The notes below the pieces were generated by a model that ran no database searches, was not told the origin of the DNA, and saw nothing but the letters and a program-made list of their open reading frames with translations. A stretch of DNA of 64,000 nucleotides from a virus (Duplodnaviria > Caudoviricetes): positions 1,339 to 65,338 of IMG/VR virus record IMGVR_UViG_3300006092_000329; one strand, given 5' to 3'. Made by a program: the position numbers and the translations under genes. Numbering within the stretch: the first letter of the stretch is position 1; the number at the start of each line of letters is the position of its first letter. Positions 4,019-51,600 of the stretch are shown piece by piece.

Positions 4019-4019
4019 G

Positions 4020-4490
4020 CTACATGGGCCTCGTCATGAAGCGCATGATCTCCGTGCGCATGGTCTCCACCGGCATGTTGTCGGGGAGATGCTCGTTGAA
4101 GCTCATGACCGAATACTGCTGGAGCGCCTTGGCGTCCATGGATTGCAGCGGCATGAGGACCGGCAGCTTGTCGATCTCGTCCTGCTGGAAGGTCGGCTTC
4201 CACTCGCGGGCGACGAGAGGAGCCTTCGCGGCCTCCTCGGGATCGCGGGCATCGGCCCACGTGTCGGACCACCAGACGAGTTGCTCCGCAACGGCACGCG
4301 GCAGGCTGCGGACGACGCCGTTCGTCCAGTCCAGCTTCATCACCACGTCGGTCTCCGGGTTCGCCTTGCTGGCGATGTACCGGACGGGGATCAGGTCCGC
4401 TCCCTGAATGGCAGGGGCGGCGGGCTTGACCACCCGAGGTTGTTTGGGCGTCGCCCCCTTCTTGGGTGCGGCGCGCTTCTTTGCGCTCAT
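4020..4490 (-). CDS. Hypothetical virion-associated protein
   Basis: 156 aa, basic N-terminus, GGAG RBS, tightly coupled to the next gene. Confidence 0.6.
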   Translation of the reverse strand: MSAKKRAAPKKGATPKQPRVVKPAAPAIQGADLIPVRYIASKANPETDVVMKLDWTNGVVRSLPRAVAEQLVWWSDTWADARDPEEAAKAPLVAREWKPTFQQDEIDKLPVLMPLQSMDAKALQQYSVMSFNEHLPDNMPVETMRTEIMRFMTRPM

Positions 4491-4584
4491 GTGGTGCTCC
4501 CGAATTGTGAGTCTCCAACCCCGTGAGCACGTGGCCCACGGGGTTTTGGAGGGTGCTACAAGGCTCTACGGTGGTACGGTACTT

Positions 4585-5022
4585 CTAGCGAACGCCTTCG
4601 CTGACGCCGAAGCACGTGGCGCGCACGACACCGGCAGCGCCGGTCACGACCGTGCCGAACGTGCCGAGCAGGAAGGCGTCCTGCTCGAACTTGATCTCGT
4701 TGAAACCGGCGAGCCACGTTGCCACGTTCGCGCTCGCCATGGCGAGGGCCGACGTGAAAGCCGTGGGCGCAGCGGCCAGCGAGCCTTCGTTCGTGTCCAT
4801 TGGGGTGTAACCCCAATCGCACGGTGCGGTCGCGCCCTGCGAGGCCCACGACAGCAGCAGGGCGTACATGCGGAAGCCCGCAGGGATGCGGAGGACGCGG
4901 AGCAGATCGCCGGTGACGACGTTGGCGGTGGGGGTGACTTCACCGTGCGGCAGGGTGGCATCGCCGAACTCGCCGATGTGCGAGGCGCGGCGGATGAGGT
5001 CCAGTGCGGAATAGGTTGCCAT
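4585..5022 (-). CDS. Putative capsid decoration/cement protein
   Basis: 145 aa beta-rich ORF immediately after the capsid gene; CAGGAG RBS. Confidence 0.6.
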   Translation of the reverse strand: MATYSALDLIRRASHIGEFGDATLPHGEVTPTANVVTGDLLRVLRIPAGFRMYALLLSWASQGATAPCDWGYTPMDTNEGSLAAAPTAFTSALAMASANVATWLAGFNEIKFEQDAFLLGTFGTVVTGAAGVVRATCFGVSEGVR

Positions 5023-5061: not shown

Positions 5062-5082
5062 TAAAAGGGGCCGAAGCCCCTC
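5062..5082 (-). terminator. Rho-independent terminator after capsid gene
   Basis: AGGGGC-TTCG-GCCCCT hairpin followed by TTT on minus strand, ~20 nt after the MCP stop. Confidence 0.75.
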
Positions 5083-5102
5083 CCATCATTGGCTCCGGTC
5101 GA

Positions 5103-6410: not shown

Positions 6411-6476
6411 GGTTCAGACTCCTTGAGGTTGAAGGTTTTGCTTTTCAGCACCCAAGGGGCTGTCCAGCAGCGAAGA

Positions 6477-22793: not shown

Positions 22794-22912
22794 CCGCGCC
22801 GTGCTCACGCGCTCGCGCCGCGCCCGCCGCAGCCGCGTGATCTCGTGTGCGCCCTTCGTAGCGCGCGTTGAAAATTTTTTTACTCCGTAGGAGTAACTCG
22901 AAAGGGGGGGGG

Positions 22913-22941
22913 TTGACAAAGTATTCACCGATGGATAAAGT
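22913..22941 (+). promoter_or_regulatory. Strong sigma70-type early promoter
   Basis: TTGACA-N17-TAAAGT with upstream A/T tract. Confidence 0.75.
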
Positions 22942-23138
22942 GGAGGCCAATTTGCAGCACCGAACCACCGGAATCCGGCCAATGCCAAACCCGGTGGACA
23001 CTGCAAAGCGGCGCGACGAGACAGCGCCCTACAAGAGAGTCTGGCGGTCGGACGTTAGTCGATCCCCATGAAGCTGGAGGCATCCAGTGTCGGGAGAGAG
23101 CCGCAAGCTGCGCTGGCAAAAGAGCCAGTCCGCTACCG

Positions 23139-23157
23139 AAAGCCCCTTGGGGCTACG
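23139..23157 (+). repeat. AGCCCC-N2-GGGGCT hairpin motif, copy 1
   Basis: AAAGCCCCTTGGGGCTACG. Confidence 0.8.
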
Positions 23158-23505
23158 GCAAGCGATCACTGTGAAGGTGCGAAGGCAAGGGTGGAGCGTG
23201 AGGCTCCAACGAACCTCGGGGCAAGACCTGCTCGAAACTGCGACTGGCAATCGTGGCGGAGAGCGCAAGGGCGACGGCAGATGCCGCATCCGAGTAAAAG
23301 CCAGTCCGGAGCACCACAATCGATCCGCCTCAAGGTACAGCAGGGACACGGTGCCCTGTCGAACCCATGTACGAATTGGCGGATGTCTTGAGGGCGCTGC
23401 CTCGGCCCGACTGAGCGAACACACGAGTCGCTCTAGGGTGCCGCACACTGAGGCGGCGCAGCGTCCTCAAGCGGTGCAGCAGGCGACCGTGACTGCCTGC
23501 AACTG

Positions 23506-23530
23506 AAAGCCCCGAGGGGCTACGAAAGGA
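23506..23530 (+). repeat. Hairpin motif copy 2 abutting RBS
   Basis: AAAGCCCCGAGGGGCTACGAAAGGA. Confidence 0.8.
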
Positions 23531-23536
23531 AACACC

Positions 23537-23854
23537 ATGTCCAAGAAGACCGCCAAGACCATCCTGTCCGCTGCCGTGGACGCCGCCATCGCCAAGGGTG
23601 CCGAGACCATCGTCGAAATCGACGCCACGATGGCCCGCTTCATCAAGGAAGTGCGCGAACTCGCCGCCAACCCCGGCGTGTTCTGGGGCTGCGAACTCGT
23701 TGCCGAGATGGACGACAACGATCTGGCGAAGATGATCACCGGGGCGCTCACGACGAAGACGGCGATCAAGAAGGTGAAGCGTGCCCTGTATCGCCAGATC
23801 GACCCGTATGGCCGGGTCGCTGAGATCAAGGCCCGCAACGCCGCTGCCGCCTAA
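23537..23854 (+). CDS. Early hypothetical protein
   Basis: 105 aa, AAAGGA RBS, phage-like codon usage. Confidence 0.75.
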   Translation: MSKKTAKTILSAAVDAAIAKGAETIVEIDATMARFIKEVRELAANPGVFWGCELVAEMDDNDLAKMITGALTTKTAIKKVKRALYRQIDPYGRVAEIKARNAAAA

Positions 23855-23938
23855 TCGGCAGATCGCTCAGGACGAACCCCACGGATTGCGCCCTGCGGGG
23901 CGCTCTCCGGGCGGCTTGCCCGGTTCAAGGAGCGTACC

Positions 23939-24235
23939 ATGCCTGACTCGTACCAAGAAGCACAAACCGCAGTGGGGGCCATCTCGGACTTTGCGAATCG
24001 CTGGTCCGGCGCGACTGCCCGCCATTGCTTCGCCACCCGGATGTGCCACGGCACGCACCGGACTCTCCAGCAAGGGTCATTTGCCCTGATGCTGGCCTGC
24101 ATCGATCAGTGGGCGAAAGACGCCGACGCTGGCAACTTCGACCTCCGCAATGAGGAGACGGTCAAGATGGCGAAGCAGATCGTCGAGAGCTTCGGCGAGG
24201 AGTGGAAGTACAAGGTCAACCTGCCGGTCATCTGA
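23939..24235 (+). CDS. Early hypothetical protein
   Basis: 98 aa, AAGGAG RBS. Confidence 0.75.
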   Translation: MPDSYQEAQTAVGAISDFANRWSGATARHCFATRMCHGTHRTLQQGSFALMLACIDQWAKDADAGNFDLRNEETVKMAKQIVESFGEEWKYKVNLPVI

Positions 24236-24245
24236 GGAGGGACTC

Positions 24246-24464
24246 ATGGCTACGTGGCACCAGCAGCAAGCGCAGCGGCGCAACCCTACGCCGCTCTGGG
24301 ACAAGGTTCGCTGGAACCTCGTCACCGATCCTCCGAACGAGATGACGACGATCATGTCGTTCGAGACCAAGGAAGCCGCAGAAGACACGCTCGCCAAGTG
24401 GAAGGCGAACGGTCGCGGCGATCACAGCTACATCCTGCCGCCGTCCGGGAAGTGGCAAGCCTGA
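24246..24464 (+). CDS. Early hypothetical protein
   Basis: 72 aa from ATG 24246, GAGGAG RBS. Confidence 0.65.
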   Translation: MATWHQQQAQRRNPTPLWDKVRWNLVTDPPNEMTTIMSFETKEAAEDTLAKWKANGRGDHSYILPPSGKWQA

Positions 24465-24532
24465 GCGCCGCCCGATGCCCTGCTTGCAGGGTATCGAGAG
24501 TCGCTCCGACTCGAACCTTGAAGGAGGTCAAA

Positions 24533-25225
24533 ATGATCATCGAACGAGAGTTCGTGTACACCGAAAGCGATGAGGACTACGGCGGTGCCGGTTGGGTTCC
24601 TCGCGGGATGGAAAAGGCGAATGCCTTCGAGGCCACCATGGTCGGCCACGATGTCATGGAGCACATCGGCGGCGAATCTGATCGCTACGTCGATGAGTTG
24701 CTCGCTCTCGGCGCTTCCGTCTACGTCCGCACCGAGAACGGCTGGTACTCGATGGGCCGCATGGCCCAGAACATCAACGATACGTGGCAGCATCTCGGCT
24801 CCTCGCTCCTCATGGACGTGTTCCGTGACGCTTGGTACGAGGGCAGGGACATCCGCCACCCCGGACGAACCCGTCCGCTGGACGCCATGCAAGAGTCGGA
24901 GTTCGAGAGGGCAATCGACTATTGCATCAACCTTGCGAAGTCCGAACTCGACTCCGAGGAGCACGAGGAGGGAATGCGCAAGCTCCGCTCCTGCCGCTAC
25001 ACCATGCTCGGCTGGCTCCGCAAGGGCTACCGTAGGGCGGTGAGGCTGTACGGCAGGCACCGTCAGCACAAGGCGCTGGATGCCTTCATCGAAATGGGCG
25101 AGAAGCTCCAGAGGGAGACTCGGGACGAATTCGACCGCTACGAAGGCTATCGCGTCAAGGTGCGCCTCGACACGAAGACCATGAAGACCACCATCATCAC
25201 CGAGGAGGATGAGCATGAAGACTGA
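24533..25225 (+). CDS. Acidic early protein with HDxxEH putative metal site
   Basis: 230 aa from ATG 24533 (AAGGAGG RBS); GHDVMEH...DELLALG. Confidence 0.7.
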   Translation: MIIEREFVYTESDEDYGGAGWVPRGMEKANAFEATMVGHDVMEHIGGESDRYVDELLALGASVYVRTENGWYSMGRMAQNINDTWQHLGSSLLMDVFRDAWYEGRDIRHPGRTRPLDAMQESEFERAIDYCINLAKSELDSEEHEEGMRKLRSCRYTMLGWLRKGYRRAVRLYGRHRQHKALDAFIEMGEKLQRETRDEFDRYEGYRVKVRLDTKTMKTTIITEEDEHED

Positions 25226-25580
25226 CGAACTGAGCGCCTTCACCAAGGGCTACATCGAGTGCCTGCTCTGGTCCGAATGCACCGTCGATAACGGGCTGGA
25301 GGATATGGACATCTCCGACCTGTCCGACGAGACGCTCAAGGCAATCGAGGAGGACTGCAAGTCCTTCGAGGGCGACAACGCCGAAATCTGGCGGGCCGAA
25401 GGCCGCTGGACCGACGAGCAGGCGGGGCACGACTTCCTGCTCACCCGTAACCGTCACGGCGCTGGCTTCTGGGACCGTGGTCACGGCCCCGTGGGCAGGG
25501 CGCTCACCGAGTCGGCGCACCCCTATGGGACGTTCGGCCTGTACCTCGGCGACGACGGCAAACTCTACCACCACAACTAG
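25209..25580 (+). CDS. Conserved-looking early hypothetical protein
   Basis: 123 aa acidic; QAGHDFLLTRNRHGAGFWDRG. Confidence 0.7.
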   Translation: MSMKTDELSAFTKGYIECLLWSECTVDNGLEDMDISDLSDETLKAIEEDCKSFEGDNAEIWRAEGRWTDEQAGHDFLLTRNRHGAGFWDRGHGPVGRALTESAHPYGTFGLYLGDDGKLYHHN

Positions 25581-25589
25581 GAGTCACTC

Positions 25590-25880
25590 ATGGCACGCAA
25601 AGCGAAAGCGAAGCCCGTCACCAAGGAACACAAGGACCGCATCTGGATCGAACTCGAAAGGCCGAAGGGTCTTCCCGAGAAGGATCGGATCGAGTTCTGC
25701 GAGCGGCAGGCGGAACTCGCAACCAAGCTGCTCCACCGTCTCGGCGTCAACAAGGATCAGCGGTTCTACTGGAGCGAGCGCGACCTGTACTACTGCCTCG
25801 GCGGGCCGATGGGCTACCTCGTCCTGACCGACAACGGGCACTGGTTCAACCTGAAGTACCTCGCCACCGGCGAAGCCTGA
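25590..25880 (+). CDS. Early hypothetical protein
   Basis: 96 aa, TAGGAG RBS. Confidence 0.7.
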   Translation: MARKAKAKPVTKEHKDRIWIELERPKGLPEKDRIEFCERQAELATKLLHRLGVNKDQRFYWSERDLYYCLGGPMGYLVLTDNGHWFNLKYLATGEA

Positions 25881-25910
25881 AGACCGCGCCGGACGGATTC
25901 CGGCACATCG

Positions 25911-25933
25911 AAAGCCCCTCGGGGCTACGAAGG
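25911..25933 (+). repeat. Hairpin motif copy 3 abutting RBS
   Basis: AAAGCCCCTCGGGGCTACGAAGG. Confidence 0.8.
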
Positions 25934-25940
25934 AGCAAGC

Positions 25941-26603
25941 ATGAAACCTGAACAACTCCCGTCCTATGGACAGTATTTCGACGGCGGAGAGCGCATTGAC
26001 CTCGGTCACGGCTACTGCGCCAAGGTCGAACTCTGGTACGACGAATGCATGCGTGAGCCGTGGAAGGAGATGGACGGCTGCGTTGTCGGCATCCGCACCG
26101 CCAGCACCAACTACACGGGGCACATCAGCAAGTCGCCGAACGAGCGCATCTTGCACAAGGGCGACCGCAACCAGTGGGATTACGTGTACGACTTCAACGC
26201 CTCTCTCGCCGTCGCACTGAAGGACGGATGGGGATGCCGCGCCGACTTGGAGGGCATGACCAAGAAACAGCGGGCCGTGAAGGCGGTCGAGGAGAACGCC
26301 GACTGGCTCCGCCGCTGGCTCAACAACGAGTGGCACTGGATCGGTTGCACCGTCACCCTGTACCGCACCATCAAGGGCGACGGTCACTTCCGCGTCTTCG
26401 ACAAGGAGCACGAGGTCATGACCGAATCGTGCGGCGGCTTCGAGGATGAGGGCGACTACTGGAAGGAGATGGCCTGCGAACTCATCGGCGATGCCGTCGA
26501 GAACGACATGGAGGAGCGCCGTCAGGCATGGCGGCAAGCTCTTGCCGAAGCCCGCGAGGAGCGGTACTGGAACCAGCGTGACGTGATCACGGAAGGAGTC
26601 TGA
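25941..26603 (+). CDS. Early hypothetical protein
   Basis: 220 aa, Trp/acidic-rich, AAGGAG RBS. Confidence 0.75.
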   Translation: MKPEQLPSYGQYFDGGERIDLGHGYCAKVELWYDECMREPWKEMDGCVVGIRTASTNYTGHISKSPNERILHKGDRNQWDYVYDFNASLAVALKDGWGCRADLEGMTKKQRAVKAVEENADWLRRWLNNEWHWIGCTVTLYRTIKGDGHFRVFDKEHEVMTESCGGFEDEGDYWKEMACELIGDAVENDMEERRQAWRQALAEAREERYWNQRDVITEGV

Positions 26604-26604
26604 C

Positions 26605-27012
26605 ATGCGAATCTCAATCAGCAAGGAGCACGGTCTCAACCCGACGCTTGGCGTCTGCCTCTGGTGCGGCGAGGAGGACGGCACCATCGGCCTCCTCGGG
26701 GCGAACGGCGGCAGGGAAGCGCCGCGTCACTCGATCATCTCTGCGGAGCCGTGCCCGAAGTGCAAAGCCGGGATGGCGCAGGGCATCACGTTGATCGAGG
26801 CGTCGCCCACCTACAAGGAGGGCTACACCAACATCGGCGGGGCGTACATCTCTCGCCGCTGGTTCGTCATCAAGCGTGAGGCGGCTGAACGCATCCTCAC
26901 GGCAGGCCCGGTGCGCGATTCGGTTCTGCGTGTCGGCAAGGGGTATCTCGATACCGAGACGTTCGAGTACCTCCTCAACCAGTTCAAGCAAGCGGAGGAA
27001 GACCATGGCTGA
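26605..27012 (+). CDS. Early Zn-binding hypothetical protein
   Basis: 135 aa; CLWC and CPKC pairs. Confidence 0.7.
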   Translation: MRISISKEHGLNPTLGVCLWCGEEDGTIGLLGANGGREAPRHSIISAEPCPKCKAGMAQGITLIEASPTYKEGYTNIGGAYISRRWFVIKREAAERILTAGPVRDSVLRVGKGYLDTETFEYLLNQFKQAEEDHG

Positions 27013-27202
27013 AACAAAGCTCCCGACTGTCGGCGGGACGTTCAAGCTGAAATCACCCTCACCCGTGTTTCCGCGAGACATCGCGGCACGGTGGGTGTGC
27101 GACGAACGCTCCGGCACCATGGTCCACGGCAAAGGCGTCGAGGACGAGCACGGCACCCCGATCACCGGATGGTTCCGCATCAACGAAGTCACGTTCATCT
27201 AG
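27005..27202 (+). CDS. Early hypothetical protein (SH3-like size)
   Basis: 65 aa from ATG 27005, GGAGGA RBS. Confidence 0.6.
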   Translation: MAETKLPTVGGTFKLKSPSPVFPRDIAARWVCDERSGTMVHGKGVEDEHGTPITGWFRINEVTFI

Positions 27203-27210
27203 GAGGCCAC

Positions 27211-27510
27211 ATGAAAGCACGATTCTTCAACGAACCCGAGGACTGCGACTGGCTTCGCCACGTCCTGCCGTCCACGAAGGACGTTTCCTTCAAGTCGTTC
27301 ATGCTCTATGGCAACGAGGACTGCCCGATTGCGGCGGACCTGTTCGAGAGCGACGACCCGCTGTTCTACGACGACTTCACCCGAGTGGCGGGTGAGGCAT
27401 TCAACCTCGGCGACTCCGGCTACTTCGACCGCAACCACCGCTGGCAGGACGACATGGCGATGTGCGCTCGTGAGTGGTACGGAATGCCGAAACTTCAGGA
27501 GGAATTCTGA
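27211..27510 (+). CDS. Early acidic hypothetical protein
   Basis: 99 aa from ATG 27211, AGGAGG RBS. Confidence 0.65.
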   Translation: MKARFFNEPEDCDWLRHVLPSTKDVSFKSFMLYGNEDCPIAADLFESDDPLFYDDFTRVAGEAFNLGDSGYFDRNHRWQDDMAMCAREWYGMPKLQEEF

Positions 27511-27947
27511 TGAAGCTCTACCGCGAACTCGCAACCTTGGTGGACGCCTTCCACCGTGTCAACGCCGGTCTCCAAGACGGCTCGTTCCTCGGCGACCCTG
27601 ACTGGCTCCGCCGCCACAAGGCCCGCGCCGAACTGCTCACGAAGAACTTCATGCCGAGCGGCTCCGGCGTGGACTGCGGCACCAAGATCGATGTCGAGGC
27701 CAGCACTGGCGACCGTCTCGTGTTCCAGATGGACTTTCACCACATGGACTCGCAAGGCGGGTACGACGGCTGGACCGAGCACCGTGTCTCCGTCAAGGCT
27801 TCCATGGTCCACGAGATTGACATCCGGATCACGGGGCGCGACCGCAACAAGATCAAGGAGTACCTCCACGACCTCGCTCACGGCTGTCTGGTCGAGGAAC
27901 TCGACATCAAGACCATCCACTCCCTCTACCACAAGGAGGACATTTGA
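27510..27947 (+). CDS. Early hypothetical protein
   Basis: 145 aa from ATG 27510 (TGATG), AGGAGG RBS. Confidence 0.7.
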   Translation: MKLYRELATLVDAFHRVNAGLQDGSFLGDPDWLRRHKARAELLTKNFMPSGSGVDCGTKIDVEASTGDRLVFQMDFHHMDSQGGYDGWTEHRVSVKASMVHEIDIRITGRDRNKIKEYLHDLAHGCLVEELDIKTIHSLYHKEDI

Positions 27948-28123
27948 ACACCAAGCTCCACCCGAAGTCCTGCTCCTGTGCTCAGTGCAAGCGCGGCAAG
28001 GGCACCAAGGCAGGCAAGCAGGCAATGAAGCGGGACGAACGGGCGTTCCGCCACAAGGCGAATCTCGCCACCAAGCAGGGCACTGAAGTCCCCGTCGTGC
28101 CCATCGGCAAATACTACGACTGA
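27944..28123 (+). CDS. Small basic CxCxxC protein (not in ORF track)
   Basis: TTG start after AGGAGG; MNTKLHPKSCSCAQCKRGKG..., 59 aa. Confidence 0.6.
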   Translation: MNTKLHPKSCSCAQCKRGKGTKAGKQAMKRDERAFRHKANLATKQGTEVPVVPIGKYYD

Positions 28124-28136
28124 AGGGAGGTCAAGC

Positions 28137-28325
28137 ATGGCAATCACCCACATCACCGTGCGCCGCGAGAAGAACTACGGCATCGAAGTCTTCTACCCGG
28201 AGGACGAAGCCGCCAAGTTGTTCGCCAACGTGGCGCAGACCAGCACGCTGACGCGCCGGACGCTGGACGCCATCAAGCGTTTCGGCATCCAGATCAACGT
28301 GGTTCATCCCACGGTGACGCTGTGA
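28137..28325 (+). CDS. Early hypothetical protein
   Basis: 62 aa, GGAGG RBS. Confidence 0.65.
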   Translation: MAITHITVRREKNYGIEVFYPEDEAAKLFANVAQTSTLTRRTLDAIKRFGIQINVVHPTVTL

Positions 28326-28588
28326 AGCTGAAGCTCTCGCGTCTTCACAAGGACAAGCGGGACGCTTTGAAAGCCCTGTGGTTGGGGCATCAGATTCACT
28401 CCTTCCCCCACGGCACAGGGCAAAACCTGCGGCGGCGTGCCCGCTCCAATGCGGTCGCCGTTGTGTCCAAGCACTCGGATGGTCGGTACGGTCACTCGAT
28501 CTACCACGTCCTTGATCCTCACCCGTACATCAACCATCGACGAAAGCGCGTTCGCTTCATCCCCGTCGAGGTCGATGTCAAATACTGA
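28322..28588 (+). CDS. Basic His/Arg-rich hypothetical protein
   Basis: 88 aa, GTGA overlap. Confidence 0.45.
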   Translation: MKLKLSRLHKDKRDALKALWLGHQIHSFPHGTGQNLRRRARSNAVAVVSKHSDGRYGHSIYHVLDPHPYINHRRKRVRFIPVEVDVKY

Positions 28589-28597
28589 AAGGCATCT

Positions 28598-29527
28598 ATG
28601 AAACTGATTGATCGCTTTACCGGCAGCATCATGGGCCTCGCCATCGGCGACGCCCTTGGCGCTCCCGTCGAGTTCAAGGAGGCTGGCACGTTCACGAAGG
28701 TCAAGTCCTTCCGAGACGGCGGGCCGTTCAACCTGAAGGCTGGCGAGTGGACGGATGACACGTCCATGGCGCTCGCCATGGCGGACAGCATCGTCATCAC
28801 GAAGACCATCGATCCAACGGATCAACTCTTGCGGTACTGGAGTTGGTATCAGTACGGTCGCTACTCATCGAACGGGCGATGCTTCGACATCGGACTCACC
28901 ACGAAGGCCGCTCTCGAACGCTGGCACAGGACCAAGGTGCCGTACCCCGGACGAGGCAAGTTCGATTCCGGCAACGGCTCACTGATGCGTCTTGCCCCTG
29001 CCGTGCTGGCATTCAGCGAGTCACGGGAGAAGGCGCTGTGCGCTGCGGTCGCTTCATCATCCACGACGCACGCCTCCCCCATCGTTCTCGACTGCGTGGA
29101 AATCATGGCCTCGGTCCTGATGGATGCGCTGGACGGACGGATCGAGATGATGTCCGGCCCGCTCTCGTACCGCACCCCGGAGGGCGCTGACGTGGGCCTG
29201 TGCGGCATAGGCACCATGCGCATTCCGCAGATGCGCCCATCCGGCTACGCTCCCGAGTCCCTGTGGTGCGCACTCGAATGCCTTCGCACCACGAAGACGT
29301 TCAAGACCGCAGTGCTCAAGGCGGTGAACCTTGGCGGCGACGCCGACACCATTGGCGCTATCACCGGGCAGATTGCCGGGGCGCTGTACGGTATCGAGGG
29401 AATCCCGGACGAGTGGCGCAGGAACGTCGCGCTTCCGAAGACGCTCATGAAGGTGGGGCGTGCGCTGTACGAGGGTCGAAAGGACTTCCATTTCACCACG
29501 GTACTTCGTACCGAAAAAAGTTCTTGA
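28598..29527 (+). CDS. ADP-ribosylglycohydrolase (ARH/DraG family)
   Basis: GDALGAPVEF, WTDDTSM, GNGSLMR, THAS, GGDADT signature motifs all intact. Confidence 0.92.
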   Translation: MKLIDRFTGSIMGLAIGDALGAPVEFKEAGTFTKVKSFRDGGPFNLKAGEWTDDTSMALAMADSIVITKTIDPTDQLLRYWSWYQYGRYSSNGRCFDIGLTTKAALERWHRTKVPYPGRGKFDSGNGSLMRLAPAVLAFSESREKALCAAVASSSTTHASPIVLDCVEIMASVLMDALDGRIEMMSGPLSYRTPEGADVGLCGIGTMRIPQMRPSGYAPESLWCALECLRTTKTFKTAVLKAVNLGGDADTIGAITGQIAGALYGIEGIPDEWRRNVALPKTLMKVGRALYEGRKDFHFTTVLRTEKSS

Positions 29528-29553
29528 CAAGGATATTCACCGACGAATAAACT
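29524..29553 (+). promoter_or_regulatory. sigma70-type promoter for AAA-vWA triad
   Basis: TTGACA-N18-TAAACT; spacer shares TATTCACCGA with the 22913 promoter. Confidence 0.7.
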
Positions 29554-29582
29554 GTTTGCCGCTTCACCGTTGTCCAACTCAC

Positions 29583-29605
29583 AAGCCCTCCGGGGCTATG
29601 AAAGG
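29583..29605 (+). repeat. Hairpin motif copy 4 abutting RBS
   Basis: AAGCCCTCCGGGGCTATGAAAGG. Confidence 0.75.
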
Positions 29606-29612
29606 AAACACC

Positions 29613-30686
29613 ATGTCTCTGATCGCCGCCAATTCGGTGAGTCACTCCGACCTCACCGTCATCCTCAAGCTGTACGTCATGGGAAACAAGCCGGTCCTTG
29701 TGACCGGCGCTCCCGGAATCGGCAAGACCGATTGCATCATCGCTGCCTGCAAGCTGCTCGGCTTCGACTACCTGATCCTCCACCCCGTCACGTCGGAACC
29801 CATCGACTACAAGGGTCTGCCTGCCATCGTCAACGGCGAGGCTCGCTTCCTCCCGTATGGTGAGTTGCTCGCCATGCTCAAGGCGAAGAAGCCGCTGGTC
29901 ATCTTCTTCGATGACCTCGGTCAAGCTGCCGAGGCGGTGCAGAAGCCGCTCATGCAACTGCTGCTGGCCCGCGAAATCAACGGCGTGAAGATCAGCGACG
30001 AGGTTCGCTTCGTCGCCGCGACCAACCGCCGCAAGGACAGGGCTGGCGTCTCCGGGATTCTGGAGCCGGTCAAGTCCCGCTTCGCCACCATCGTTGAACT
30101 CGTTCCGTCCGTCCCTGTGTGGATGGATTGGGCGCAGGACAACGGGATGCCGGACGTTCTGGTCGGCTACATCAACTCCCATCCGGACGCTCTGTTCGAG
30201 CCGAATCCCACGCAGGACTTGGTGAACAGCCCTTCCCCCCGGTCGTGGTCTCACGTCGCCTTCGCTGTCACGTCTGGAATCCCGGAGCATCTGCGCCGGA
30301 CGGTCGTCGGCGGCGCTGTCGGCATGCAACGCGGCACCGAGTTCGTCAACTTCTGGACGATCAACGAGAAGGTGATCCCGCCTCTCGATGTCCTCGCCAA
30401 TCCCGAGGGCTGCGATCTGCCCGACGATCACTCGATGCTGTACGCCCTGTGCCGTGGCGTCAACGTCGCAGTGACTCCGAAGTTGATGGCGAACTACGGC
30501 AAGCTCCTCTCCCGTTTGCTCATGATGCAGAAGGGTGAGATGGCAAGCATGATGTACCACCAGATGTCCTCGTTCGACGGCACCGATGGCAAGCGTGACA
30601 AGACCGGGTGCCACGCAACGAAGGCATGGATCGATCTGACCACTGGCCCGGTCGGAAAGATGATCACCAAGGCCAGCCGCATCTAA
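29613..30686 (+). CDS. AAA+ ATPase (MoxR/dynein-like clade)
   Basis: 357 aa from ATG 29613; GAPGIGKT Walker A, IFFDDL Walker B, AATN sensor I, SRF, SPRSW. Confidence 0.88.
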   Translation: MSLIAANSVSHSDLTVILKLYVMGNKPVLVTGAPGIGKTDCIIAACKLLGFDYLILHPVTSEPIDYKGLPAIVNGEARFLPYGELLAMLKAKKPLVIFFDDLGQAAEAVQKPLMQLLLAREINGVKISDEVRFVAATNRRKDRAGVSGILEPVKSRFATIVELVPSVPVWMDWAQDNGMPDVLVGYINSHPDALFEPNPTQDLVNSPSPRSWSHVAFAVTSGIPEHLRRTVVGGAVGMQRGTEFVNFWTINEKVIPPLDVLANPEGCDLPDDHSMLYALCRGVNVAVTPKLMANYGKLLSRLLMMQKGEMASMMYHQMSSFDGTDGKRDKTGCHATKAWIDLTTGPVGKMITKASRI

Positions 30687-30698
30687 CCCTCCCATCAC

Positions 30699-30721
30699 AA
30701 GCCCCAAGGGGCTATGAAAGG
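30699..30721 (+). repeat. Hairpin motif copy 5 abutting RBS
   Basis: AAGCCCCAAGGGGCTATGAAAGG. Confidence 0.8.
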
Positions 30722-30730
30722 CAACGACAA

Positions 30731-31603
30731 ATGAACACCTTCAAGACTGACGTGAACCTGACGACCTCCTGCCTGCTGGTCTCCCTCGTCTCGACCGCAT
30801 GGAGCGCCCGTCATCTCGACCGCACCCTGACCTCCGAAGTCCACAAGCGCCACGGCATCAGCGAAAAGTCCGGTCGCTACAACAAGTGCGTGGTGGACGT
30901 GGACGATCCCGACTTCGCCAACAACGCCAAGTTCCGGGCCGCTGCCCGCTCCTTCCTGTACCAGAAGACCTTGCCGTGGGCGACTGACGGGAGCCGCATC
31001 CTGCTGGCGTCTTCGTTCACCAACTTCCAGACCGACATGGGCCAGCATGAGCGTGCCGTCAAGGCTGCGGACGAGGTTCTGTTCGCCGCTTACCCGAGGC
31101 TCAAGGCGAAGGCGAAGATCGACCTGAACGGCGCGTACAACGAGAACGACTACCCGTCGCAGGCCGAACTCGAATCGAAGTTCCGCTTCGTGGTGAAGTA
31201 CCTCCCGGTCCCGAGCGTCAACGACTTCCGGGTGGACCTCGGCAAGAAGACCATCGCCGCTCTGGAGCAGCAACTCCGGGACGAGATGGAGAGCGTCGCC
31301 GAGCAGGCCATGCGTGATGTCTGGGAGCGTCTGCTCAAGCCGGTCAAGAACATGGCCGTGCAACTCTCGAAGCCGAACGGCAAGGTCCACGACTCCATCG
31401 TCGGCAACATCATCGACATCTGCAAGATCATCCCGGACCTGAACATCGCGGACGACCCGAAGCTGGAGGAACTCCGCAAGGAGATCATGAAGACGCTCAC
31501 CCGTCCGACCACCATCATCCGCAACGACCCGGCAGCGAAGGCCGACCTCGCCAAGAAGGCCAAGGCGATCAGCGCCAAGATGTCGGCCCTCATGGGAGAG
31601 TGA
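30731..31603 (+). CDS. Helical/coiled-coil partner of AAA-vWA module (DUF3150-like)
   Basis: 290 aa from ATG 30731, between AAA and vWA genes; family label tentative. Confidence 0.65.
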   Translation: MNTFKTDVNLTTSCLLVSLVSTAWSARHLDRTLTSEVHKRHGISEKSGRYNKCVVDVDDPDFANNAKFRAAARSFLYQKTLPWATDGSRILLASSFTNFQTDMGQHERAVKAADEVLFAAYPRLKAKAKIDLNGAYNENDYPSQAELESKFRFVVKYLPVPSVNDFRVDLGKKTIAALEQQLRDEMESVAEQAMRDVWERLLKPVKNMAVQLSKPNGKVHDSIVGNIIDICKIIPDLNIADDPKLEELRKEIMKTLTRPTTIIRNDPAAKADLAKKAKAISAKMSALMGE

Positions 31604-31604
31604 C

Positions 31605-32723
31605 ATGCACCCGCTACTCAATCGCATCAGTGTTTGCGCCACCGTGCTGCTCATGCGGTGGGCGTTCTACGGGGCGCTGTGCTTCAAGCTGCAACCCGTG
31701 GTGGACGAGTCCATCGGGACCGCTGGTACGGATGGGACGCGGGTGTGGTTCGCCCCGTCCTACTGCGACAAGCTGACCGAACGTCAACTCGTGGGCCTGA
31801 TCGCTCACGAGATTCTCCACTGCGCCCTGCTTCACATGCTGCGCCTCAATGGGCGTGATCCGGAACTGTGGAACCTCGCTTGCGACTACGTGATCGACCA
31901 GATTCTCGTGGACGCAGGGTTCGAGGTTCCGGATGCCACGGTCAACCCTGCGTGGCGCGGCTGGACTGCGGAGATGATCTACGAGGAACTCCTCAAGCAG
32001 CAGAAGCAGACCGGCAAGAAGCCGAGCGGCGGCAAGGGCGACAAGCTCATCGCCCCGAAGGACGACGCCGAGGCGAAGACCCTGCAATCCGGGTGGGAGG
32101 AAGCCGTGCAGGCTGCGGTCATGCTCACCAAGGGCAAGGGCGATCTTCCTGCGGGGCTGGACATGGCGATCAAGCAGATCACCGAGGCCCGTGTCGATTG
32201 GCGCTCCGAGATGCGTCGCTTCACGCAGCAGACCGCGAAGAACGATTACTCGTGGTCTAGGCCCAACCGCCGCTGGCTTGGTGCGGGGTTCGTGCTTCCG
32301 TCCATGTACTCGGAGCGCCTTCCTCCTGTCGTGTTCGTGAGGGATACCTCCGGGTCACTCTGGAGTCCGGCGTGCCAGTCGATCTTCAACAAGGAGTGCG
32401 ACTCCCTGATCGCCGAGTGCAACCCGGAGGCAACGCATGTCCTGCAAGTGGACGCCCGCCTTCAAGACGCACGTACCTTCGAGAGCGGCGATGAGATCGA
32501 CCTCGGCAGCATCAAGGGCGGGGGCGGCACCAGCTTCGTCCCGGCGTTCGATTGGGTCGAGGAGCAGGGCATCGAGCCTGCCTGCCTGATCTACCTCACC
32601 GACATGGACGGCACGTTCCCGAAGCAAGCCCCGTCCTACCCTGTGCTGTGGGCATCCACGGTGAAGGGGAAGAAGGCTCCGTTCGGGGAAGTGTTGTACA
32701 TCGACATGGAGCAGAGACCATGA
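31605..32723 (+). CDS. Metallopeptidase-vWA fusion (DUF2201-like)
   Basis: TAGTDG, AHEILH...WNLACDYVID zincin domain; DTSGS MIDAS, GGGTSF, LTD vWA motifs. Confidence 0.88.
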   Translation: MHPLLNRISVCATVLLMRWAFYGALCFKLQPVVDESIGTAGTDGTRVWFAPSYCDKLTERQLVGLIAHEILHCALLHMLRLNGRDPELWNLACDYVIDQILVDAGFEVPDATVNPAWRGWTAEMIYEELLKQQKQTGKKPSGGKGDKLIAPKDDAEAKTLQSGWEEAVQAAVMLTKGKGDLPAGLDMAIKQITEARVDWRSEMRRFTQQTAKNDYSWSRPNRRWLGAGFVLPSMYSERLPPVVFVRDTSGSLWSPACQSIFNKECDSLIAECNPEATHVLQVDARLQDARTFESGDEIDLGSIKGGGGTSFVPAFDWVEEQGIEPACLIYLTDMDGTFPKQAPSYPVLWASTVKGKKAPFGEVLYIDMEQRP

Positions 32724-39237: not shown

Positions 39238-39510
39238 ATGAATTTCAGAGAAGTCACTCCGGTAGTAATCGGGATGCTGTTCGGGGCCATGCTCTACGCC
39301 AGCATCGAGAAGAACCGGAGTAACACAGATCACCAGCCGCAGCTTCCTTCACCGGACGCTAGTGGCGAAGTGAACCGGGCTTGGACCGAAGGCGTCCAGC
39401 ACGGAGCAAGACAGGTCGCAGCAAGGTGCGGCGATCTGAAGATGCAATTCAACCCAACCATTAACGTGAAGGAACTGAACTATGAACACCCCTCAAGCCA
39501 AAACCGCTGA
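39238..39510 (+). CDS. Hypothetical protein with hydrophobic N-terminus
   Basis: 90 aa from ATG 39238; no clear RBS. Confidence 0.3.
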   Translation: MNFREVTPVVIGMLFGAMLYASIEKNRSNTDHQPQLPSPDASGEVNRAWTEGVQHGARQVAARCGDLKMQFNPTINVKELNYEHPSSQNR

Positions 39511-40384
39511 CGCCTCCGACGTGCTGAACGCACTCAACTCCTCGGCGTCGTTCGACCACAACTTCATCTCCGGTGCCGTCAAGGAGGCGATGAAGGACGC
39601 CAAGGCCGGGTCCGGCGATCTGTGGAAGGTGCCGGTCAACGAGTTCCACATCCTGCCGGGGTTCAACCCGCGTCAGGAGTCGCCGGAGTACCTCGAACAC
39701 ATCGAGCAGATCGCCGCCTCGATCCTGTCGGAAGGCTTCTACCCCCACAAGCCCATCGCCGGGTACGTGGAGCGCGTCGATGGCAAGAACGTGATCGTCG
39801 TGACGGACGGCCACACCCGTCTCCGTGCCGCCAAGCTCGCCATGGAGCGCGGTGCCCAGATCGCCTCGCTGCCCACGGTCATCACCGCCAAGGGCACGAA
39901 CCGCGAAGACCTCACCATCGCTCTGGTGAAGTCCAATCAGGGCCGTCCGCTGACGATGCTGGAGACCGCCATCGTCTGCAAGCGCCTCATCTCCTACGGC
40001 ATGGAGGTCAAGGACATCGCTACCCGCCTGAACTACACGGCGGCGTATGTGAACCAACTCCTCTCCCTGCTGGAGTCGCCCAAGGAAATCCGCGACATGA
40101 TCGTCAAGGGCGAGATCAGCGCCACGACCGTCGCCGAGACGATCAAGAAGCACGGGCAGGAGGAGGCGGCGGCTCGCATCACCGCCGCCGCTGGCGACGC
40201 CAAGAAGAACGGCAAGAAGGTCACGGCCAAGAACCTGAAGGACAAGCCGAAGACCCAACCGTCCGGCCCGACCCCGAAGGCGCTGCTCGCCGAGATGGTG
40301 CGCTACGTCGAGGCGAACCCGAAGGCTGTCAGCGATGACATCCTGCGCGGCTGGTTCGAGGAAGCCAAGGCGCTCGTGGCGTGA
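39482..40384 (+). CDS. ParB/Srx-like domain protein
   Basis: ILPGFNPR, VTDGHTRLRA, N-x-GRPL, downstream HTH region. Confidence 0.8.
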   Translation: MNTPQAKTADASDVLNALNSSASFDHNFISGAVKEAMKDAKAGSGDLWKVPVNEFHILPGFNPRQESPEYLEHIEQIAASILSEGFYPHKPIAGYVERVDGKNVIVVTDGHTRLRAAKLAMERGAQIASLPTVITAKGTNREDLTIALVKSNQGRPLTMLETAIVCKRLISYGMEVKDIATRLNYTAAYVNQLLSLLESPKEIRDMIVKGEISATTVAETIKKHGQEEAAARITAAAGDAKKNGKKVTAKNLKDKPKTQPSGPTPKALLAEMVRYVEANPKAVSDDILRGWFEEAKALVA

Positions 40385-41148
40385 CCCGGCCCGCCCCATG
40401 GGGCGGTCTGAGCAAGTCCAACCTGAAGAAGTTCGAGGGCTGGCTGGTTGAACGTGGAGCGGAGTTACTCAAGCCAACGAATCGGTACGAGTTGCTCCGC
40501 TTCATAGCCAAGGGTGAAACGTGCGTCTTCTACACCAATGCGCAAGGTCGTATCACAGGCGTCCCGCCTGAGCCGTGCCGCGAAGCCTACGATGCGTTCC
40601 GCACGGGGGCTTCGTGGTCCGGCAACAGCGGGATCGCGCCGAAGCGCAAGGCCATGGGGAAGCACGTCAGCACCCTGCTCGAACGCGATGGGCAGCTTTG
40701 CTTCCTGTGCGGAGAACCTCTAGGTGACTCGACCACGGTCGATCATCTGGTGCGACGAGGCTCAGGCGGTCCCAATCACATTCACAACTTCGTGCTCATG
40801 CACCGGCTCTGCAACCAGCGGGCTGACGCAATGAGCGCCATGGAAAAAATCGCGGAGCACGTCGGCTGGCGTCTCCGCAAGTTCAAGGAGTGGCTCAAAC
40901 ATGGAACAGAATCAACTGGCCCCGTCCGCCTCGGCGTTTCAGGTGCCGTCCCTCTTGCTCCCGCAGGAGGAGATCATCAAGGCGATGCTGTCGAGCGTCT
41001 ATCCGGGAGCGTCCCCGGAGTCGGCGATGATGGTGCTGGCGTGGTGCAAGGCGCAGAACAAAGACCCGCTGAAGAAGCCGGTCCACATCGTCCCGATGAC
41101 GGTCAAGGAGAAGGACGCCAAGGGGAAGGTGCGCAACGTCAAGCGTGA
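40381..41148 (+). CDS. HNH endonuclease
   Basis: CFLCGEPL...TVDHLVRRGSGGPNHIHNFVLMHRLCN; 3' end overlaps bet by 248 nt. Confidence 0.75.
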   Translation: MTRPAPWGGLSKSNLKKFEGWLVERGAELLKPTNRYELLRFIAKGETCVFYTNAQGRITGVPPEPCREAYDAFRTGASWSGNSGIAPKRKAMGKHVSTLLERDGQLCFLCGEPLGDSTTVDHLVRRGSGGPNHIHNFVLMHRLCNQRADAMSAMEKIAEHVGWRLRKFKEWLKHGTESTGPVRLGVSGAVPLAPAGGDHQGDAVERLSGSVPGVGDDGAGVVQGAEQRPAEEAGPHRPDDGQGEGRQGEGAQRQA

Positions 41149-48077: not shown

Positions 48078-48640
48078 GCGACACGAGCGTCCTGTACTCC
48101 CCGGACGCACTCCGCGACATCATCAAGCGCCTGCTCGACCACATCGAGATCGACTGCGGCAACGCGATCACGAAGGTGGCGGAGCAACTCGCAAGGCACT
48201 CCGAGGTAATGGACGCCATCGCCCCGCTGATCGGCGACGATGCCTACGTCAAGCGCGATGGCGAGGTCACTGACATTGTGGCTCTGGACAAGGTTTTCGC
48301 CGGGGTGACGAACATCTGGGCGGAGAACAGCAACCTGCGCATGGGGCTGAAGTTCTACGCCGACCGGCAACACATGGACGGGTTCGATAGCACGGCCCTC
48401 GGCTTCCACAGCGCGGAGGGCATGCCTGAAAACTGGATGGCCCCAACCTTCGATGTGGTCCGCCTTCACCCGACATCAGCGCATCAGGAGGTCATCGACG
48501 CATCAAGCAACCTTCTCATCGAGAACGGCGGCATCGCTCGCGGCGTCCTCGAAGGGTCGATCATCATCAACAACGGGGACGGCGTTCTTGTCGGAGACTC
48601 GAACGCCGCCCTTATTGCGCCGAGGCAGGTTCCGGGCTGA
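48011..48640 (+). CDS. Hypothetical protein
   Basis: 209 aa from ATG 48011 (AAGGAG RBS); converges on giant gene. Confidence 0.6.
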   Translation: MDSKNIIDLEAENPILAAQNVLSDTSVLYSPDALRDIIKRLLDHIEIDCGNAITKVAEQLARHSEVMDAIAPLIGDDAYVKRDGEVTDIVALDKVFAGVTNIWAENSNLRMGLKFYADRQHMDGFDSTALGFHSAEGMPENWMAPTFDVVRLHPTSAHQEVIDASSNLLIENGGIARGVLEGSIIINNGDGVLVGDSNAALIAPRQVPG

Positions 48641-51600
48641 CGGCTTTCTGGAACTCCCCCGAGATACGTTCCTGCTTGCGCTCGATGTTCTTCATCATCG
48701 CCTCGAACTTCTCGGAGGAGATTCCCTTGCGATCCAGCATCCGCTTCAGCGAAGCCTTCTGCTCGTTGAGTTCTCGCGCCTGCTTGTCGTGCTCGTACTT
48801 GAGGCGCTGCTCCGCCGCGTCCGCAGGCTGCGACGTTTCCTTCACGCCCACGGAACCGAGAATCGCCTGACGGAGATTGCGCTCGCGCCCAAAGGCGTCG
48901 GTCTCGCCGCTACCAGCCGACTGAATCGACTTCCACGAGTAGGTCTGGAAAAGACCGATCTGGTCGAAGGCGGAGTCAGCCCACCACCCCACCGGATTCG
49001 GGACAGGGAGGTTCGGAGCAAGGAACTTGAACAGGTGATCGAAGACCTTGACAGCCTTCTCGGAATCGGTGTCGGTTTCAAGGGTGATCGGCTTTCCGGT
49101 GAACGATGACTTGTTGAGGAAGAACTCGGCGAAGTAGGAGACCGGCCCGCCGATACTGAGCCACTGCGGGATCGGCAATGAGGAGTGACTCCCCATGAGG
49201 TCCATGATGTCGCCGCCCGGAATCCAGCGGCGCACGTCGAGGAACACGGGGCTGTTGTGCTCGTCGTTCCACGGCATGCGGATCATGCGTGGGAACACGC
49301 CGAGCGCCCTGCCAGACTTCTCCTTCGCCATCATGCGGCGCTCCTGATCCTCGTCAGCGCCAGCGCCGAGCATGGCGTAGGCGATGGCGTTGAGCAGATG
49401 GCCGACCGCCGCGTACTTGAGAACCTTGTGCGGCTGGTGGACGACTGCGCTTGCGATGATCGGGATGGCCCGGTAGCTGAAGGCGACGAACGGCAGCGGC
49501 CCGCGACGGATCATCTGAATCCACGGGGCATTGATGTTGTAGTCGAGGAACGCGGCACGCGCCAGCTTGCCAGCATCCTTGTCGGTCTTCCCGGCGTTCG
49601 TCTCCATGATGAACTTGGCGAGACGGAACACCGCATCCTCGTTGCGATACAGGTCGATCATGGCCCTGAACGGCACGCCAAGTGCGCGTACCGGAGCCTT
49701 GCTGCCGAGCACGGCCTTGGCCTCGGAGAACTTCCCGTGAGCCGCCAGCGAGATGCCTTGGAACAGGGAGAGTTGCGCGAGCGTCGAGTTCTGCTGGCCT
49801 TGGAGTTCCTTCAGCAACGGCTCGATGACCTCCTGACGAAGCTCGATCTGAGCCATGGAGCCAAGCTCCGACCCGGAGTCGTAGAACCGCTCCATCAGCA
49901 CCTTGGCGTTCGCGTTGCCAGCCTTGGCGTCGAAGATCACGCGGAGCGCACGGCGCACGTCATCAACCCCAAGCCCCGCCAGATCGGCGAGGATGAAGTT
50001 CGACATGACGTTGTTCGTGTGGACCGCAGGCGACAGTGCCGTCTTGCTGATCTTCCACATCTTGAGCAGGGAGTCGTACAGCTTCCAGACCTCGGAGTTC
50101 GACTCCAGATTCATGACGGTGCGGATGTCGTTCCAGATGTGGCCGGGGATGTGATACCCGGCAGCGCCGCCGTACTTCTTGATCCCGGTCCCCTTGATCT
50201 CGGTCATCGGGACTTGGACCCATTCGTTCAGGGCGTAGGTCTCCATCGTGATCTTGGAGTCGCTCGCGTCTTTGATCACCCCTCCCATGGCAAGCACGTC
50301 CGTGCCGCTCTTGCCATAAGTCGAGCCGACCCAATCGAGGAATCGGGCCGTCTCGATGTCACGCACGGTGGCGATCATGGTCCGCGCAAATGCGTAGCGG
50401 ACCTCATCGATCTCGCCAAGCCTGCCGCGCTCCTGTGCGGTCAGGTCGCGCCACATCCCCATCTCGCCATGCTTTTGCATGCGGTCATCGAAGCGGTACT
50501 CCCACACACCATCCGTGGTCCAGCCAGCGTACTTCGCCGGGGCGGGCTGGCCCTGCTTCACGTAGGCGAAGTTTTGCAACACGCCAGCCGCGTTGCGCTT
50601 CTCCAGCCGCACGAACTTGTCCCCCTTCTGGGCGTTCGGATACCCGGCAGCGGCCACGTTGTCGCGCAGGCCGCGCAGCTTGTACGCATCCGCCCGGATC
50701 GCCTTGGCCTGAGTGGCTCGGGCCACAGCATCCGGATTGTCGAGTTCGTGCTTCTGGTAGGTCCGGTGGAGGTACGCCATTTTGTTCCGGGCGTAGCTCT
50801 CCGGGGACAGCAGGCCAAGGCGCACAGCCTCCTGACCAAGACGGTCGATCTCTAGCTTCATGTCGTTCAGCGCCGCCACGGAGTCAGGATCGAGCAGCGC
50901 CATGAGCGCCTGCTCCTCGATGGAGTTCGGCTTCTCTTGCATCCACAGGTACGCCACACGGGCCTCAGCCCTGTCTAGGCTGGCAATGCGGTCGATCAGA
51001 GCCTTCGACTTGCGGAGCGTCTTGTTGATCTCGATCTCGCGGTCGTTGCGAGCATCGATGTACGGCTCCGGCAGGCCATAGTCGGACGACAGGCCGTGCG
51101 CGATGCGCTGGCGGCGAGGGCCAGCAGCCATGAAGTTCGACCCCCATTGCACCAGACGATCAGATACCGGGGCCAGCGTGCGATCACCGATGATCTTGAA
51201 CGGGTAGAGGATCGTGTTCGCCGCCTTGTTGGTGAACTGCATCGCCTTCGTTACCGGGGCCGGTACGGCGGCTGCGGCAGAGACCGTGCCATAGAGTCGC
51301 TCTTTCAACGAGCGTGACGGGCGAGCATTAGCGGTCGCCATGACCATCCCCGGACGGTCGCTCTCCACCGACATCGTGATGTCGTCGTCCTGCCTGCTCC
51401 ACGCGCCGCTATTGTGGGTAGCCGACTTCATCTGATTCTTGGAGTAAACGGCGACGTTCTTCGCGCCCTCCTTGGTGTGGAACGAGTCGAACCCCATCGA
51501 GCGGATCGCCTTCTGGACCCCTACCCCCTCGATGGTGGTCCAAGACCCCGCAGACACGGCGTTGATCAGGCCGGAGATGTCGGTCTTGATGTTCTTGGAG

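Follow-up and report, generated by a model that had tools for sequence, protein, structure and literature searches.

A structured RNA module at early-gene junctions of an uncultured wastewater podophage lineage

Why should a short GC-rich palindrome recur five times in the early region of one phage genome, almost always just before a ribosome-binding site? The question arises in IMG/VR record IMGVR_UViG_3300006092_000329, a single-contig virus record of 65,338 bp with about 62% GC, of which we analysed positions 1339–65338; this stretch of 64,000 bases is referred to here as the window. An earlier note, made from the letters of the window (the original prediction), had described the repeat as a hairpin that gates the ribosome-binding sites of a small regulon and is bound by one RNA-binding protein or nuclease. 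We find that the element is real and lies at the RNA level, and that it is restricted to uncultured podophages of wastewater that form a rare lineage. Its five copies represent a structured RNA module specific to this lineage, located in the 5′ untranslated regions (UTRs) and intercistronic gaps of early operons that are transcribed by the host polymerase. Tentatively, we regard this module as a putative recognition site for one common trans-acting factor that controls translation and/or stability.

Four exact copies of the 14-nt palindrome AGCCCC-NN-GGGGCT, at 23141, 23508, 25913 and 30700, are present in the window, where zero are expected, and no dinucleotide shuffle contained any match to the palindrome (0/100). 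A fifth copy, at 29584, has one mismatch, which falls in the loop (UCCG), so that its 5-bp stem is intact. All five are on the plus strand of the early region. In four of them the GG of a Shine-Dalgarno sequence (SD) follows 5–6 nt downstream within A(C/T)GAA(A)GG, and ATG codons lie 15–19 nt past the stem (23537, 25941, 29613 and 30731); the fold occupies roughly positions −34 to −12 from the start codon and ends 5–6 nt before the SD. The genes behind these four copies encode, in order, a 105-residue protein without a family, a phrog_11104 protein, a MoxR-like AAA ATPase and a 290-residue partner of this ATPase, with a DUF2201 peptidase/VWA gene coming next after the partner gene. Copy 2 immediately precedes the SD of the first early gene, copy 3 precedes the SD of the gene at 25941–26603 (with an unrelated GC hairpin upstream, at 25888–25904), copy 4 is 5′ of the SD of the ATPase gene (29613–30686), and copy 5 follows the ATPase stop codon and comes before the SD of the partner gene (30731–31603). 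Copy 1, which has an extra third helix, sits in an untranslated leader with no SD or open reading frame (ORF) behind it. Both the number of copies (four exact and one near) and their placement, including those at the ATPase and partner genes and the one within the leader RNA, agree with the original prediction.

The conserved unit is larger than had been described: the repeat itself stands, but it spans about 42 nt with an outer helix, not 14 nt and three flanking bases. Folding of the copies with their flanks gives, from 5′ to 3′, a 3-bp outer helix, a 2×1 internal loop, an invariant 5-bp AGCCC/GGGCU helix and a variable tetraloop. The internal loop is asymmetric in every copy, with AA or CA unpaired on the 5′ side and a single A on the 3′ side. 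The flank A(C/T)G is one half of a compensatory change, as G-A-A before the stem goes with A-C-G after it and A-C-A goes with A-U-G. Within the outer helix, copy 2 has a U.G pair and copy 4 has A-U in place of the G-C of copies 1–3.

We aligned nine copies, five from the window and four from the related phages L009 (one), G001 (two) and L010 (one), described below. In this alignment (A3), paired cells amount to 93%, versus 25–47% when the 3′ partners are slid by 1–3 columns; all three outer pairs change on both sides (U-A/C-G; C-G/U-A/U.G; G-C/A-U), and the covariation score was equalled in 1 of 500 column shuffles. Independent minimum-free-energy (MFE) folds showed the two-helix shape in six of eight copies. 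None of the nine aligned copies departs from GCCC/GGGC in the inner stem or from the flanking A's. The loop differs in all five window copies and is the least conserved part of the element, which makes the appeal of the original prediction to known stable tetraloops a weak argument for an RNA element. Some MFE folds contain a third helix that pairs the GG of the SD with an upstream CC; its position is inconsistent and such pairing is expected by chance in GC-rich RNA, and we do not claim it.

A covariance model (R1) built from A3 matched exactly five copies in the window, at 41–48 bits and on the plus strand only. The next-best matches, bare palindromic cores on the minus strand, score 12–14 bits, leaving a gap of 27 bits. 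Two supposed degenerate versions, one before the major capsid gene and one after the ParB-like gene (Table 1), are present as sequence but are not members by this model. A search of Rfam gave nothing at gathering score over the whole window and nothing at E ≤ 1 for the leader stretch 22800–23700, which contains copies 1 and 2.

The motif is kept in the three related uncultured phages before non-homologous genes, and the hairpin is maintained while its loop length among the relatives is 4, 6 or 13 nt. L009, a 55-kb Logan contig that is about 95% identical to the window in shared blocks, has four of the five copies; its copy 1 differs in the loop only, and the segment 25892–27208, within which copy 3 falls, is absent from it. 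G001, a complete IMG/VR genome of 66 kb, has exactly two copies; its portal is 56% identical and its ATPase 41% (39% by tblastn). The first, whose hairpin has a 3-bp extension, is found about 50 nt past a TTGACA-17-TATACT promoter and before a gene unrelated to the first gene of the window; the second, whose 5′ arm has one inserted base and whose loop is longer, precedes the ATPase gene. The ATPase, partner and DUF2201 genes are the only early-region genes common to G001 and the window. L010, a 3-kb ENA contig encoding a partner protein with 54% identity, has a shifted, equally GC-rich hairpin with the same flanks at its ATPase/partner junction. Motif identity is kept between genomes with proteins that are only 40–56% identical, and the proposal of a conserved motif therefore survived the search in relatives.

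In pattern scans of IMG/VR, G001 was the sole relative with the motif, and searches of IMG/VR with the ATPase and the portal gave nothing closer. The 56 metagenome loci that contain the partner gene (at most 38% identity) all lack the motif by regular expression (56/56), and the covariance model also found none in 43 of them. No motif was seen in the contigs of ATPase homologues P0013 and P0015 or in Achromobacter phage CF418P1. Bacterial genome contigs gave 20 single hits in unrelated taxa, compared with about 30 estimated by chance, and hence no host element.

Two early promoters, P1 and P2, are near-consensus σ70-type sites (10/12 matches). P1 is located 190 nt upstream of copy 1 and P2 before copy 4, which lies about 25 nt into the P2 transcript; no promoter-like site was found before copies 2, 3 and 5. 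No phage RNA polymerase was found in the window, by a search whose control was weak, and with the two σ70-type promoters this places all copies inside host-polymerase transcripts. The spacing between the 6-nt arms shifts among the relatives (2, 5 and 12 nt) with the hairpin kept, and the two G.U pairs of the outer helix are A.C mismatches on the opposite strand. Taken together, the covarying outer helix with its tolerated G.U pairs, the asymmetric internal loop, the fixed distance to the SD and the variable arm spacing support an element that works on the sense RNA strand and not as a DNA dyad, in line with the RNA-level element that the original prediction had favoured. No RNA run is among the public runs listed as holding the window, and the lone run labelled metatranscriptomic gave six short contigs with no ends. 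Variant genomes occur in runs X3–X8, with 86–92% of words shared in X3–X6, 54% in X7 and 39% in X8.

We found no sign that the hairpin gates the ribosome-binding site by structure. Partition-function folding of positions −90 to +40 predicts the same SD accessibility for the wild type, the hairpin deletion and the arm mutants, and the SDs of the hairpin genes are unexceptional among plus-strand genes of 23–49 kb. Since predicted accessibility does not change, the hairpin appears neither to occlude nor to insulate the SD. A further proposal, that the leader RNA acts as a titrating sponge, also found no support: the leader contains only one copy without an SD, G001 has no long leader, and the leader has no complementary partner. 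By duplex energy, the leader would pair with SD segments no more favourably than with others, and no anti-SD word was found. The leader, which is about 97% identical to L009, has no gene call in that near-identical contig, and its ORF fails a test of third-position GC content (GC3). Its folding energy (z = −4.1 versus shuffles) might suggest an exceptional structure, yet the raw energy is within the range of equal-length coding segments, and this candidate was rejected. Substitutions that separate the window from L009/X8 are clustered in a small leader hairpin at about 23238–23262; they include one double change, C-G to U-A, and one change of G.U to G-C, both with pairing kept, a pattern that lends some support to a structured leader RNA.

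The search for a reader of the hairpin among phage proteins was equally unproductive, and the dedicated RNA-binding protein or nuclease of the original prediction has no counterpart by CsrA, Pfam or PHROG RNA-binding domains. No match to PF02599 (CsrA) was obtained even at E ≤ 10, with control genomes positive, although F116- and Bcep22-like phages commonly carry csrA (PMC7366521), and the GGA is outside the hairpin, not in the hairpin loop as in CsrA/Rsm targets. The small early ORFs gave no informative Pfam or PHROG match. One of these, the 59-residue ORF at 27944 that had been put forward as a KTSC protein, has no KTSC, other Pfam or PHROG match.

How, then, might the module work? In the tentative reading given at the outset, a factor of the phage or of the host would read the inner helix and the internal loop and, when bound, would govern the downstream cistron through its translation initiation and/or its stability, the targets of the factor forming a small early "regulon". 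That the factor would be a specific one is suggested by the sequence conservation of the inner helix and internal loop across paralogues and diverged relatives, while the outer helix covaries and the loop drifts. Copy 1, with no SD behind it, argues for a role of the hairpin in its own right, and the retention of the module at early-gene junctions while the surrounding genes turn over indicates that it is portable. The regulon of the original prediction is possible, if unproven. Four observations weigh on the other side. A3 is small, its nine copies coming from about four genomes of which two are near-identical, and its covariation comes from few independent events; for these reasons we take the covariation as supportive, not conclusive. 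The ATPase/partner junction of G001 has no hairpin, so no single site is indispensable. Within the early operon, GC hairpins, singly or as a pair, stand shortly before the SD in each intergenic gap of more than 40 nt, mostly with unrelated sequences, and because these occupy the same position, a generic structural role could suffice. Finally, Pfam and PHROG searches gave no RNA-binding protein candidate among the phage proteins.

The closest described phenomenon, by analogy, is the SAS/ESAS (start-associated sequence and its extended form) of Cluster K mycobacteriophages, an SD-containing repeat located a short distance ahead of start codons, by a few nucleotides (Pope et al. 2011, PMC3203893). 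Its function is undetermined, a role in translation initiation is suspected, and its authors found little support for mRNA hairpins (PMC3203893). Like SAS/ESAS, the present element is adjacent to start codons, is found at non-structural genes only and in one orientation, and is absent from bacterial genomes; an inverted repeat with a variable spacer comes ahead of the SD here and often ahead of SAS, and both elements are kept before different gene families, SAS/ESAS across subclusters. However, the 13-bp SAS consensus is not seen here, the conserved 3′ segment being A(C/U)GAAAGG; the hosts and phage types differ; there are five copies, versus more than ten; the inverted repeat is 5–6 bp plus 3 bp, as opposed to 17 bp in ESAS; and in contrast to ESAS, an RNA hairpin is supported by covariation.

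Another parallel is offered by the promoter-early stem-loop (PeSL) cassettes of T4-type phages (Arbiol et al. 2010, PMC2839356; Comeau et al. 2014, PMC4122927). These too are reiterated intergenic cassettes in a plastic early region, with a G/C-run stem-loop and an SD and start codon at the end, and in both systems genes are gained, lost or replaced between close relatives at the cassette edges. Unlike PeSL cassettes, which each contain a strong σ70-like early promoter, only one of the five window copies and one of the two G001 copies have one; the stem-loop is downstream of the promoter, within the transcript, and no exchange between motif copies was seen. It also has no U-tract, which makes a terminator role of the PeSL type unlikely.

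Small RNA hairpins are bound by Aca2 and Aca1 in the 5′ UTRs of acr-aca operons (PMC13551039 and references therein). Those hairpins resemble ours in being small, conserved, beside the ribosome-binding site of a phage early 5′ UTR, and palindromic as DNA and hairpin-forming as RNA. There a protein reader controls translation or RNA fate, whereas here we found no aca-like helix-turn-helix gene and no matching promoter inverted repeat, and several dispersed copies take the place of one operon leader. Bound protein also blocks initiation at the T4 gp43 hairpin operator, the RegA targets and the coat-protein operators of RNA phages. With the T4 and RNA-phage operators our element shares a hairpin inside the 30S footprint that either covers the SD or lies immediately upstream of it; it differs in that the loop sequence, the main determinant there, is least conserved here, and no candidate for the binding protein was found.

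A possible, if somewhat doubtful, alternative to a specifically read site is that of a generic PeSL-like connector of hairpin plus SD, in which any stable GC hairpin would serve, for example as a 5′ barrier against RNases after processing or as a cistron boundary, and which would have no specific reader. The five copies would then be one duplicated variant, and their conserved sequence would mainly provide short homology for RecT-type swapping of early genes. The unrelated GC hairpins in the other gaps agree with this explanation, as do the unrelated genes that follow the motif in G001, and the genome has genes for an exonuclease and a RecT-like annealing protein. Mosaicism points the same way. 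The 55-nt island at 24461–24515 is 100% identical to L009 4497–4551, in surrounding shared blocks that are only about 95% identical, and the genes flanking it in L009 are unrelated (an insertion of 565 nt to its left and, to its right, a replacement of 727 nt by 826 nt). Comparison of the window with L009 places breakpoints at 24443/24461, 24515, 25891, 27209 and 27947, with X8 adding 25884 and 29523, all at intergenic cassette edges; PeSL cassettes show such behaviour (PMC2839356). Nevertheless, no observed rearrangement joins two AGCCC copies, and the 25892–27208 indel has a copy at one end only. Identity over 26–42 nt between genomes with proteins 40–56% identical is hard to explain without selection on sequence, the predicted folds give the SD no insulation, and the primary transcripts do not begin with the hairpin.

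It is unlikely, in our estimate, that the module is the operator of a novel sequence-specific RNA-binding regulator, of phage or host origin, that switches the early cistrons together and reads the stem and the A-rich internal loop, not the hairpin loop. If this were true, the MoxR-ATPase/partner/VWA-peptidase module would be among the targets, as would the first early gene, and the phage would possess a post-transcriptional regulon with a new mode of RNA–protein recognition.

A site read as DNA, such as an operator, a "stoperator"-like roadblock or a centromere-like site for a dimeric protein, for example the ParB-like protein of this genome, appears very unlikely. Stoperators and dispersed centromere sites occur in other phages, and the former are mentioned in PMC3203893. 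Dimer sites typically have the form seen here, a perfect dyad (6+2+6) whose centre varies, and the copies are clustered and intergenic. However, a dimeric DNA-binding protein would need a fixed half-site spacing and symmetric flanks, whereas the spacing varies in the relatives, one of which has a shifted stem, and the conserved flanks are asymmetric. The fixed offset of 2 nt versus 1 nt in the outer helix and the G.U pairs make sense in RNA only, and the tight distance to the SD would be unexplained.

Termination or attenuation of sense or antisense transcription is a highly improbable function. The stem is GC-rich, its 5′ A-run is a U-run on the opposite strand, where three copies read hairpin and then UUUC, and PeSL stem-loops do terminate transcription (PMC2839356). 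On the plus strand, however, no U-tract follows the hairpin and a terminator scan lists none of the copies, for which reasons an intrinsic terminator was rejected; on the minus strand at most three U's follow it, with UUG at two copies. The stem is short (5 bp), the covarying flanks would pair the supposed U-tract, and one copy comes directly after its own promoter.

An N4-like DNA-hairpin promoter for a virion-delivered RNA polymerase, an idea prompted by the gene for a 3490-residue virion protein (48612–59084, minus strand), was rejected. If transcription started about 11 nt after the loop centre, as in the N4 promoter geometry, it would here begin just before the SD. However, the giant protein is polyvalent and DarB-like, without similarity to N4 or crAss-like virion polymerases (Pfam, PHROGs, PDB sequences) or a PF00940 match (with a weak control), strong σ70 promoters are present, and the loop is of 4 nt, not 3. 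Lambda-type nut sites have a boxA and a boxB with a conserved loop, one site per early operon; a site of this type was rejected because the loops differ in all five copies, no boxA-like sequence was seen adjoining and three copies are far from promoters.

Table 1. Coordinates of the module copies and of associated features in the window
Feature	Position	Strand	Details
Copy 1	23127–23168	+	Core 23141–23154; loop CUUG; covariance model 47.6 bits
Copy 2	23494–23535	+	Core 23508–23521; loop CGAG; 46.4 bits
Copy 3	25899–25940	+	Core 25913–25926; loop CUCG; 43.2 bits
Copy 4	29570–29611	+	Core 29584–29597; loop UCCG; 41.3 bits
Copy 5	30686–30727	+	Core 30700–30713; loop CAAG; 47.8 bits
Early promoter P1	22913–22941	+	TTGACA-17-TAAAGT; A/T-rich stretch upstream
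Early promoter P2	29524–29553	+	TTGACA-18-TAAACT; spacer resembles that of P1
Untranslated leader of P1 transcript	22950–23536	+	Holds copy 1 and ends with copy 2; roughly 590 nt
Two unrelated GC-rich hairpins	23888–23923	+	Directly 5′ of SD of gene 23939–24235; position of the motif, other sequence
Intergenic island with two GC hairpins	24461–24515	+	5′ of SD of gene 24533–25225
Look-alike with one-base bulge	6447–6461	−	36 nt upstream of major capsid gene start; unlisted by R1
GC palindrome after ParB-like gene stop	40391–40406		R1 at 40393: 8.5 bits, E 4.7; non-member
ParB-like gene	39482–40384

The window comes from a podovirus-type genome, and the public runs that hold it derive from activated sludge or wastewater. 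Its portal (best match 45% identical), major head protein, terminase and internal virion protein are distantly akin to those of F116, 933W and Achromobacter CF418P1 types. Structural and lysis genes occupy the minus strand up to about 22545, and the plus-strand early region extends from about 22950 to about 33450. For replication and recombination the phage encodes an O-like initiator, DnaB, the ParB-like protein, RecT with an exonuclease, and ThyX; a search for tRNA and tmRNA genes found none. Downstream of the major capsid gene, at 5066–5085 (minus strand), lies a textbook intrinsic terminator with a GC stem and a UUCG-type loop followed by UUUU, an example of the form that genuine terminators take in this genome. 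The giant DarB-like protein contains InPase, LPD37 and ART-PolyVal domains. The last of these is an ADP-ribosyltransferase domain, and an ADP-ribosylglycohydrolase (28598–29527, plus strand) is encoded in the early operon just 5′ of P2.

P1 and P2 share TTGACA and most of the spacer (…TATTCACCGA…ATAAA.T), which suggests a common operator within the promoter; in L009 the P1 spacer is diverged and that of P2 nearly unchanged, with one C-to-T change. A palindrome that overlaps an SD, GGAGTAACTC, is found at 22887–22899 of the window and at 1020–1032 of the related contig L094. In the latter, GGAGTAACTC lies between ARH-like and ATPase genes, just 5′ of an ATG, where the window has P2 and copy 4. 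The trio of MoxR-like ATPase, 290-residue partner and DUF2201 peptidase/VWA genes (29613–32723, plus strand) recurs in many unrelated phage contigs: the ATPase has over 3000 homologues at E ≤ 1e-40, and the partner is found at the 56 loci mentioned above. One unrelated phage-like contig with an ATPase homologue, L093, also carries a TnpB/Cas12f-like OrfB_IS605 gene (3883–4953).

The module is a new sequence and structure variant of phage start-associated repeats, a kind already known. The phage is uncultured and its lineage rare, which limits the immediate impact of the finding, and use as a compact part for portable expression cassettes in high-GC hosts is a candidate application. Phage start-associated repeats have been known for more than ten years, and none of the SAS/ESAS type has a demonstrated mechanism. 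With its clear fold, invariant inner helix, covarying outer helix, free loop and one gene-less copy, this 42-nt element offers a convenient test case for whether such repeats are motifs read by a factor or structural connectors only.

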